This document shows positions 30,432-32,862 of a stretch of 64,000 bases of DNA, one piece after another. The position numbers and the translations under genes are program-made. Below the pieces are notes generated by a model. That model saw only the letters and a program-made list of their open reading frames with translations. It was not told the origin of the DNA and did not search any database. The stretch lies in assembly GCF_024502345.1 (NCBI RefSeq), contig NZ_JALDNN010000001.1; one strand, given 5' to 3'. Numbering within the stretch: the first letter of the stretch is position 1; every line of letters starts with the position of its first letter. The stretch is from Escherichia coli. Lineage in GTDB: Bacteria > Pseudomonadota > Gammaproteobacteria > Enterobacterales > Enterobacteriaceae.

Positions 30432-32048
30432 ATGCTCAGTCAAATTCAACGCTTTGGCGGCGCGATGTTCACGCCAGTGCTGCTGTTTCCCTTCGCCGGG
30501 ATTGTGGTGGGTCTTGCCATCTTGCTGCAAAACCCGATGTTTGTCGGGGAATCACTGACCGATCCGAACAGTTTATTCGCGCAAATCGTACACATTATTG
30601 AAGAGGGAGGTTGGACGGTATTCCGTAATATGCCGCTGATTTTTGCTGTCGGTTTACCCATTGGCCTTGCTAAGCAAGCGCAGGGACGTGCTTGTCTGGC
30701 GGTGATGGTGAGTTTCCTGACCTGGAACTATTTCATCAACGCGATGGGAATGACCTGGGGAAGCTACTTCGGCGTCGATTTCACTCAGGACGCGGTGGCC
30801 GGTAGCGGTCTGACAATGATGGCGGGAATTAAAACCCTCGATACCAGCATTATCGGCGCAATTATCATTTCCGGCATTGTGACGGCGCTGCATAACCGTC
30901 TGTTCAATAAAAAACTGCCGGTGTTTCTCGGCATTTTCCAGGGGACGTCTTATGTGGTGATTATCGCCTTCCTGGTGATGATCCCCTGTGCCTGGCTGAC
31001 ATTGCTCGGCTGGCCAAAAGTACAAATGGGGATTGAATCTCTGCAAGCGTTCCTGCGTTCGGCGGGTGCACTTGGGGTCTGGGTTTACACCTTCCTCGAA
31101 CGTATTCTGATCCCAACCGGTTTACACCACTTCATCTACGGACCGTTTATCTTTGGTCCGGCAGCTGTTGAAGGCGGCATTCAGATGTACTGGGCGCAGC
31201 ATCTGCAAGAGTTCAGTCTGAGCGCCGAGCCGCTGAAATCGTTGTTCCCGGAAGGCGGTTTTGCCCTGCACGGTAACTCAAAAATCTTTGGTGCCGTGGG
31301 CATTTCTTTAGCGATGTACTTCACTGCCGCACCGGAAAATCGGGTAAAAGTGGCGGGCTTGCTGATTCCCGAAACCTTAACCGCCATGCTGGTGGGAATT
31401 ACCGAACCGCTGGAATTTACCTTCCTGTTCATTTCACCGTTGCTGTTTGCGGTACACGCCGTGCTGGCGGCCTCAATGTCGACCGTGATGTATCTCTTTG
31501 GTGTGGTGGGCAACATGGGCGGAGGTCTGATTGACCAGGTTTTACCGCAAAACTGGATCCCGATGTTCAGCAACCACGCGGATATGATGCTGACCCAAAT
31601 CGCCATTGGGTTGTGCTTTACCCTGCTGTACTTCGTGGTTTTCCGCACACTGATTCTGCAGTTCAACATGTGCACGCCGGGACGTGAAGATGCGGAAGTG
31701 AAACTCTACTCAAAAGCCGAATACAAAGCCTCGCGAGGCCAAACCACCGCGGCAGAGCCAAAAAAAGAGCTGGATCAGGCTGCCGGTATCCTGCAAGCCC
31801 TGGGCGGGGTCGGCAATATCTCCAGCATTAACAATTGCGCGACGCGTTTACGTATTGCACTGCATGACATGTCACAAACGCTGGATGACGAAGTCTTTAA
31901 AAAGCTGGGAGCGCACGGCGTCTTCCGTAGTGGCGATGCCATTCAGGTGATCATTGGTCTGCATGTATCCCAGCTGCGTGAACAGCTCGATAGCTTAATT
32001 AATTCTCATCAATCAGCAGAAAATGTTGCCATTACGGAGGCAGTATAA
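30432..32048 (+). CDS. glvC: PTS EIICB component (glvC-glvB reading frame, contiguous here)
   Basis: Start at [13 protein letters not shown] (ATG 30432); single uninterrupted frame through the C-terminal EIIB-like region (NCATRLRI). Confidence 0.75.
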
Positions 32049-32862
32049 TGACCAAATTCTCAGTGGTTGTCGCAGGCGGTGGAAGCACCTTTACGCCAGG
32101 CATCGTGTTGATGCTCCTGGCGAATCAGGACCGTTTCCCGCTTCGTGCACTGAAATTTTATGATAACGATGGTGCGCGGCAGGAAGTGATTGCCGAAGCC
32201 TGTAAAGTCATCCTTAAAGAGAAAGCGCCGGACATTGCGTTTAGTTACACCACCGATCCTGAAGTGGCATTCAGCGACGTTGATTTTGTCATGGCGCACA
32301 TCCGCGTCGGCAAGTACCCGATGCGCGAACTGGATGAAAAAATCCCACTGCGCCACGGTGTTGTTGGTCAGGAAACTTGCGGACCCGGCGGAATAGCGTA
32401 CGGCATGCGTTCCATTGGCGGCGTCCTGGAACTGGTGGATTATATGGAAAAATATTCACCAAATGCCTGGATGCTCAACTACTCCAACCCGGCAGCAATT
32501 GTCGCAGAAGCCACGCGTCGTCTGCGCCCGAATGCGAAAATCCTCAACATCTGTGACATGCCAATCGGTATTGAAAGCCGGATGGCGCAAATTGTTGGGC
32601 TGCAAGATCGCAAACAGATGCGCGTGCGCTACTACGGCCTGAACCACTGGTGGTCGGCGATATCCCGCAGTTTCAGAAAGGGTTAATGAGTCAGCAAGTG
32701 GCGGTGGAAAAACTGGTCGTGGACGCCTGGGAACAGCGTTCATATCAGCACCTGTGGCAGGCGATTACGTTGTCGAAAACGGTACCGAGCGCCTCGGTCG
32801 CCAAAGCTATTCTGGATGAGTTGCTGGAGGCCAACAAAGCGTACTGGCCAGAGTTACGTTAA
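32048..32862 (+). pseudogene. glvG: GH4-family 6-phospho-glucosidase remnant (frameshifted, internally shortened)
   Basis: 212-aa N-terminal GH4-like ORF (32048-32686) then the C-terminal part in another frame (32650-32862); combined length well below a typical GH4 enzyme. Confidence 0.6.

Follow-up and report, generated by a model that had tools for sequence, protein, structure and literature searches.

Two described sugar-uptake systems stand closest to the glv locus of Escherichia coli. The aglA-aglB genes of Klebsiella pneumoniae encode a single-chain EIICB permease of the phosphotransferase system (PTS) and, after it, an NAD+/Mn2+-dependent 6-phospho-alpha-glucosidase of glycoside hydrolase family 4 (GH4; AglB, PDB 6DUX/6DVV), and the maltose PTS operon glvA-glvR-glvC (malA/malP) of Bacillus subtilis follows the same logic of an EIICB with a GH4 6-phospho-alpha-glucosidase (GlvA, PDB 1U8X). 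AglA and B. subtilis GlvC work through the E. coli EIIA-Glc, and the aglA/aglB homologues of K-12 have been described as cryptic or truncated (PMC5309279). The K-12 gene order is glvC, glvB, glvG, ysdC and yidL (PMC10652928). In this study, we analyzed a stretch of 64,000 nucleotides of E. coli DNA (RefSeq assembly GCF_024502345.1, contig NZ_JALDNN010000001.1; hereafter the window), focusing on its copy of the cryptic glv sugar-uptake locus, a yidP-glvCB-GH4 module between yidE and yidL. An initial annotation of this DNA had described an unbroken EIICB frame beside a frameshifted and shortened GH4 gene and had taken the operon to be caught in mid-decay, with a potentially functional transporter and a non-functional enzyme.

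The module appears to be the E. coli counterpart of Klebsiella aglA-aglB, with which it shares the single-chain EIICB, the GH4 gene behind it and the lack of an EIIA of its own, and its substrate range is predicted by analogy. Unlike aglA-aglB, the window retains only a deleted, frameshifted remnant of the hydrolase gene, and the pathway cannot run. The B. subtilis operon is a more distant homologue with a regulator of a different type; the hydrolase of the window is inactive by comparison. The K-12 glv locus has the same site, gene order and neighbours as the window, 99.2% identity over 3.4 kb and exactly the same loss of 508 bp from the GH4 gene; in the permease gene, K-12 shows TAG at codon 369 and the replacement P238Q, whereas the window has neither and carries D159N and A314E instead.

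On the evidence given below, we consider with a probability of about 0.8 that the window holds the commonest E. coli allele of an ancestral yidP-glvCB-GH4 module undergoing stepwise pseudogenisation, in which the hydrolase has been lost and the permease orphaned under relaxed constraint. The situation itself is ordinary and already known, the cryptic glv genes of K-12 having long been described as truncated or nonfunctional. What is added here is a precise lesion map, allele frequencies and evidence of a drifting orphan permease, which are of little importance beyond annotation and strain biology. A literature search for glv function in natural E. coli isolates or for a glvG pseudogene returned nothing useful.

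A single deletion in the hydrolase gene

The window was aligned with K-12 MG1655, with 94-3024 as the closest complete genome and with AREA_C483, in which the hydrolase gene is intact. Against the intact 1,323-bp allele, the GH4 gene of the window showed one 508-bp gap, between positions 32640 and 32641 (Table 1). The lost 508 bp are bounded in the intact allele by two copies of the 8-bp direct repeat GAACCACT, of which a single copy remains, and slippage or illegitimate recombination between the repeats would be the simplest cause. Residues 201-367, most of the C-terminal domain, were removed and, since 508 = 3 x 169 + 1, one event both shortened the gene and shifted its frame. The product of the N-terminal piece has 200 native codons followed by 12 out-of-frame codons and a stop, compared with 440 aa in AREA_C483 and AglB, and a 70-aa open reading frame (ORF; 32650..32862) lies in a different frame from the 212-aa one. 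Both ORFs on which the initial annotation had based its frameshifted and shortened gene were therefore found, but a separate frameshift and shortening were ruled out by the single deletion. The stop codon of the EIICB gene and the start ATG of the GH4 gene overlap (TAATG).

The hydrolase of the intact E. coli allele shares 89% identity with K. pneumoniae AglB (PDB 6DUX) and matches B. subtilis GlvA (1U8X) with E=8e-224. The window retains the N-terminal NAD-binding domain (PF02056) and no complete in-frame C-terminal domain: only profile positions 168-211 of the 211 of Glyco_hydro_4C (PF11975) are left, in the other frame, whereas the intact allele matches 1-211. C169, D170 and H200 are kept and Y263 (NTYLKYY) falls within the deleted segment. 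Their counterparts in B. subtilis GlvA are Cys171, Asp172, His202 and Tyr265; C169, D170 and H200 correspond to the metal ligands and catalytic Asp, and Y263 to the catalytic Tyr. With residues 201-367 lost and the frame shifted, catabolism via the glv pathway is lost; judged from its sequence the GH4 gene is dead and hydrolysis, the second step, is predicted to be impossible, as the initial annotation had held. It is scarcely credible that the fragments (212 aa and ~73 aa) still act together as a split enzyme or that programmed frameshifting joins them again: both keep GH4 domain matches, and the N-terminal piece keeps the NAD-binding fold with C169, D170 and H200, but 167 residues are missing, 44 of the 211 C-terminal profile positions are left, at least 4 alleles among the first 10 sampled with the deletion have a Gln codon of the C-terminal part changed to a stop, and two more strains (IPCEC31 and HN68) are flagged 'internal stop' by the Prokaryotic Genome Annotation Pipeline (PGAP).

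The permease gene and the K-12 nonsense codon

The EIICB gene opens with an annotated ATG, with AAGAGGA just before it, and runs unbroken for 538 codons through both of its domains, as first reported. PTS_EIIC (PF02378) was matched at aa 10-346 (E=2.8e-70, profile positions 2-318 of 319) and PTS_EIIB (PF00367) at aa 453-482, where the conserved Cys motif NNCATRLR is present. The protein scored 955.1 bits against a cutoff of 607.3 with TIGR02005, 'alpha-glucoside-specific PTS transporter subunit IIBC' (aa 2-523), and fell below the cutoffs of the NCBIfam glucose, maltose and N-acetylglucosamine models. As the family is alpha-glucoside specific (TIGR02005), arbutin, a beta-glucoside that had been put forward as a test substrate, is an unlikely one by this assignment. 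The GITE motif (G322-E325) aligns to G295-E298 of PtsG, in which T297 and E298 bind glucose (PMC11393339). The window protein also keeps H232/H233 and E223/R224, aligned to PtsG H211/H212 and E202/R203. Cys469 is presumably the residue that is phosphorylated, as is established for Glc-family EIIB domains. The exact window EIICB protein was found on at least 55 public contigs.

The permease gene of K-12 has the same length as that of the window. A single C>T change (window 31536 C, K-12 T) turns CAG into TAG and makes the glvC/glvB split, and PGAP flags the K-12 gene 'internal stop'; the K-12 frame is therefore not equally intact, and the split that the initial annotation had given for MG1655 was borne out by the alignment. 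Codon 369 is CAG in the window, 94-3024 and AREA_C483, so that the window has no nonsense codon of the K-12 type. In the 5,426 complete E. coli genomes used for all population counts, a 57-mer with TAG was present in 348 genomes and one with CAG in 3,230, and all 60 TAG carriers listed (of 348) were K-12 laboratory derivatives. Because of these counts, the unbroken EIICB frame is the normal majority, or wild-type, state and the stop is a peculiarity of the K-12 lineage; that K-12 has glvC and glvB as a gene pair is an artefact of one nonsense mutation in this laboratory lineage.

Two side observations concern the naming and clustering of the permease. Window positions 31563-32048 (aa 378-538) are matched by the 161-aa NCBIfam equivalog NF007255, 'PTS sugar transporter subunit IIB', and this span equals the GlvB fragment that follows the nonsense codon in K-12; the model, built on that fragment, probably explains why PGAP gives the same name to the full-length EIICB. 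In a protein cluster look-up, EIICB and the unrelated GH4 hydrolase shared one 90%-identity cluster of 8,565 sequences, probably bridged by a fused or read-through gene call. This was taken as a clustering oddity, and the cluster served for exact-sequence look-ups only.

Table 1. Features of the glv locus and its borders, in window coordinates
Feature	Position	Strand	Evidence or remark
yidP, GntR/UTRA-family regulator, intact, 238 aa	29420..30136	-	Pfam GntR + UTRA; divergent from PTS gene
yidP-glvCB intergenic control region	30137..30431	+	
Imperfect palindrome, 34 bp, AGATGTCTACTTTTTCG / CGAAAACGTAGATCTCT	30253-30286		Inverted repeat with 17-nt arms, 82% complementary
Alpha-glucoside-type PTS EIICB gene, unbroken, 538 aa	30432..32048	+	Pfam, TIGR02005; equals glvC+glvB of K-12
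Codon 159, AAT (Asn)	30906..30908	+	Asp or Glu in other E. coli alleles/homologues
Codon 314, GAA (Glu)	31371..31373	+	Ala in all other aligned homologues
GITE motif G322-E325, sugar-binding hairpin, intact	31395..31406	+	Invariant columns in homologue alignment
Codon 369, CAG (Gln)	31536..31538	+	TAG in K-12; alignment with K-12 MG1655
Cys469 in NNCATRLR, presumed EIIB phosphorylation site	31836..31838	+	Invariant in alignment, inside PF00367 match
GH4 6-phospho-alpha-glucosidase pseudogene, N-terminal piece, 212 aa	32048..32686	+	PF02056 aa 6-184, E=4.6e-67
Deletion junction, single remaining copy of 8-bp direct repeat GAACCACT	32641..32648	+	
GH4 C-terminal remnant, original frame, E368-R440 + stop	32641..32862	+	ysdC in K-12 gene lists
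yidL, AraC-family regulator, convergent, right border of module	32859..33752	-	Pfam HTH_AraC/HTH_18

Allele states across E. coli

A 3.4-kb query around the locus matched 5,418 of the 5,426 genomes at 95-100% identity, and the annotated neighbours in these matches were yidE, yidP, 'PTS sugar transporter subunit IIB', a GH4 pseudogene or '6-phospho-alpha-glucosidase', yidL and yidK. The glv locus was present in ~4,270 genomes. The exact deletion junction (70-mer) was found in ~2,640, which makes it the commonest GH4 allele in the species; this number is that of the 100%-identity class, coverage of the 70-mer having failed as a discriminator because its halves were joined across the 508 bp in intact genomes. 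The 508-bp segment was present in ~1,650 genomes, including O157:H7 strains, and is annotated there as '6-phospho-alpha-glucosidase'; about 30% of complete E. coli genomes, O157:H7 included, therefore keep an intact, strongly conserved aglAB-like system. In ~1,150 genomes yidP-glvCB-glvG is absent and yidE adjoins yidL, with 49 unrelated bases in place of window 29470-32891. As ~50 bp of the yidP 3' end are left in these genomes, the absence of the module is a deletion. Touchon et al. (2009) listed glvC among the functions absent from all B2 strains (PMC2617782).

The open-permease/GH4-pseudogene state is annotated by PGAP in thousands of genomes, and the 508-bp deletion is old, shared and not special to the window. 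As to a single origin or recurrent deletion at the 8-bp repeat, the flanking haplotypes were mosaic, and recombination most simply explains this. Errors of sequencing or assembly can practically be dismissed as the source of the broken GH4 gene or of the unbroken EIICB frame: three independent public assemblies that encode the same exact permease match window 30000-33400 at 100% identity, the junction 70-mer recurs in the complete genomes counted above, and the lesion is a 508-bp deletion and no homopolymer slip. The description of an operon in mid-decay was apt, since the locus of the window stands between the fully intact and fully deleted states of the species. With the intact state, loss of the enzyme, a hit in the transporter and deletion of the module all coexisting in one species, glv offers a quantifiable teaching case of stepwise operon decay. 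By analogy with the described systems, strains with the intact allele can probably use alpha-glucosides such as sucrose isomers, whereas K-12 cannot, with possible consequences for gut-niche differences and for the engineering of isomaltose/isomaltulose use.

An unusual annotation was noted at the GH4 position of E. coli 1332KP (NZ_CM173849.1; 3408-4727 of the extracted locus), where the gene bears the name 'RNA-guided endonuclease TnpB family protein' (WP_000160102.1, 439 aa). The gene matches the first half only of the 508-bp segment and is directly followed by yidH, with yidL to yidI missing; either the locus has been rearranged further or the product name is odd.

Ancestral state of the module

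The gene order is ibpA-ibpB-yidE-GntR regulator-EIICB (540 aa)-GH4 (440 aa)-yidH in Enterobacter and yidE-yidP-EIICB-GH4 (440 aa)-yidL-yidK in E. albertii. Both modules occupy, like that of the window, the site after ibpAB-yidE in the arrangement GntR-EIICB-GH4, and their EIICB proteins are 80% and 90% identical, respectively, to that of the window; in Enterobacter, unlike in the window, both genes are intact. Because the same module is found at the same site in Enterobacter and E. albertii, the module is ancestral, and each of the three defects seen in E. coli is a derived loss. This synteny, together with the 50-bp yidP remnant in B2-type genomes, rules out that non-B2 E. coli gained the module horizontally, and no sign of recent horizontal acquisition was seen, the base composition being ordinary. 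The E. albertii permease (records L025/L026, 6001-7542) was found to have 513 aa, with a 25-aa in-frame deletion that removes GITE, beside an intact 440-aa hydrolase; the sampled allele shows decay in the opposite order to that in E. coli.

Relaxed constraint on the orphan permease

A sample of 27 alleles was drawn by even steps through the hit lists, of which 15 bore the deletion, the window and K-12 among them, and 12 had an intact hydrolase gene. Counting all glvCB variants, synonymous and nonsynonymous (S/N) changes numbered 62/4 in the intact class and 26/9 in the deletion class (Fisher p=0.0099). For class-private variants, the numbers were 42/4 and 9/8 (Fisher p=0.0016), or 42/4 and 9/7 with the K-12 nonsense codon left out (Fisher p=0.004). 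Per site, class-private N/S was ~0.03 in the intact class compared with ~0.28 in the deletion class, a difference of about nine-fold. One identical protein (WP_000952127.1) is encoded by 10 of the 12 intact-class alleles despite 1.27% nucleotide diversity. Replacements occurred in 13 of the 15 deletion-class alleles (Q6K, V25M, A213V, P238Q, P243L, S348L, D159N, A314E and Q369*), most of them at positions invariant across Enterobacteriaceae homologues. The 57-mer with P238Q was found in ~1,785 genomes, about two thirds of the deletion-bearing ones, and within the sample this replacement was confined to deletion-class alleles. P238 aligns to P217 of PtsG, which lies in the hairpin HP1b with the binding residue N215 on one side and the gate residue Q219 on the other (PMC11393339). 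For the two replacements of the window, the 57-mers with the D159N allele and with the A314E allele each occurred in 0 of the 5,426 complete genomes. A314 is conserved even in PtsG (Ala287 of the E. coli protein) and lies 11 residues before the Glu of GITE. The open frame and the sugar-binding residues of the window agree with the transporter being potentially functional, as had been proposed, but this wording is optimistic because D159N and A314E fall at positions conserved across Enterobacteriaceae homologues and constraint is relaxed in the deletion-bearing class; on its sequence the window EIICB would not be clearly functional.

Several points weigh against the reading of stepwise pseudogenisation. 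The sample of 27 is small, phylogenetically non-independent and includes two alleles by ascertainment, and the locus recombines, so that old and new variants are mixed in it. The permease frame is open in 14 of the 15 sampled deletion-bearing alleles, and the class-private ratio of 8 N to 9 S means fewer replacements than strict neutrality predicts (binomial p ~0.01), a deficit that could reflect older imported variation or residual function. A sigma-70 consensus scan found no site between yidP and glvCB and, over its whole range, fewer sites than in shuffled sequences. Constraint on the permease is, in sum, relaxed in the deletion class and not demonstrably gone.

These points bear on the alternative that, in strains with the deletion, selection still maintains the orphan EIICB as a working transporter with a role independent of the linked hydrolase, for example in glucose/alpha-glucoside uptake with the ester handled by another enzyme or a phosphatase, or in sensing or regulation through EIIB. 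The low N:S ratio and the open frames, which by 57-mer counts extend to all but the K-12 lineage, speak for it, as do the intact regulator yidP and the presence in the window protein of equivalents of all of PtsG E202/R203, H211/H212 and T297/E298. We nevertheless find it unlikely, as the nine-fold rise in N/S is measured against alleles with an intact hydrolase, the replaced Q6, V25, A213, P238, P243 and A314 are invariant or nearly so in Enterobacteriaceae homologues, P238Q changes a position of the gating hairpin HP1b in so many genomes, K-12 tolerates a nonsense codon, ~1,150 genomes do without the module altogether, and no alternative 6-phospho-alpha-glucosidase is evident at the locus.

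Stepwise pseudogenisation of the module, the reading preferred here, may have proceeded as follows. By homology with Klebsiella AglA/AglB and B. subtilis GlvC/GlvA (PMC5309279; PMC10628242), the EIICB of the intact form, charged via EI/HPr and the general EIIA-Glc (Crr), would import alpha-glucosides as 6-phosphates, which the NAD+/Mn2+-dependent hydrolase would split into glucose-6-phosphate and an aglycone or sugar. A single 508-bp deletion would have ended this catabolism and left the permease as an orphan open frame under relaxed constraint. Second hits would then have followed by lineage, namely the K-12 nonsense codon, P238Q in about two thirds of the genomes with the deletion and D159N plus A314E in the lineage of the window, and phylogroup-B2-type genomes would have lost the whole module instead. 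It is also conceivable, although we consider it rather improbable, that the permease changes of the second step were selected and did not arise by neutral drift: an active EIICB without the hydrolase would load the cell with non-metabolisable alpha-glucoside 6-phosphates, and variants crippling or silencing the transporter would be favoured, the candidates being P238Q (in HP1b), the K-12 nonsense codon, D159N/A314E and the whole-module deletion of B2. If true, glv would be a case from nature of an operon whose decay is ordered and driven by toxicity.

Regulators and intergenic region

The YidP and YidL proteins of the window are each identical to those of K-12, and yidL overlaps the GH4 stop by 4 bp. 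A yidP-type gene also adjoins the EIICB gene in Enterobacter and E. albertii. The palindrome in the intergenic region (Table 1) is a candidate operator of the GntR-type regulator YidP, by inference only; a related GTAGAYCT-like motif recurs at the start of the intergenic region and upstream of the Enterobacter homologue. A scan of 29000-34200 on both strands against Rfam (E<=0.1) gave no match. In some strains yidP is a pseudogene, being frameshifted in AREA_C483 (1000-1637) and AST19 and having an internal stop in 94-3024 (921-1637). AREA_C483 and AST19, with a frameshifted yidP and intact glv genes, were the only sampled intact-class strains with amino acid changes in the permease.

Other features of the window

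The window comes from the dnaA/gyrB side of the origin region of the E. coli chromosome and is collinear with K-12 MG1655 from dnaA to selC. Homology to K-12 ends inside the 3' end of tRNA-Sec (selC), and island DNA lies beyond (59101-64000), with a full-length RhuM-family gene (59215..60252), of which K-12 has a rhuM fragment only, and then DUF4942 and DUF932 genes. ARAGORN found no tRNA in window 56000-64000; the intact selC is probably located beyond the window, at the other end of the island. Compared with K-12, the window has an insertion of 1.2 kb within setC (56565-57784), which contains an IS30-type transposase gene on the minus strand (56572..57723; 383 aa, HTH_38 + rve) and thus interrupts setC. 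Between ysdE and tisB, the window has ~171 bp (40288-40458) compared with 32 bp in K-12; the extra DNA is GC-rich, has inverted repeats (ccctctccc...gggagaggg) and resembles a small repetitive extragenic element.

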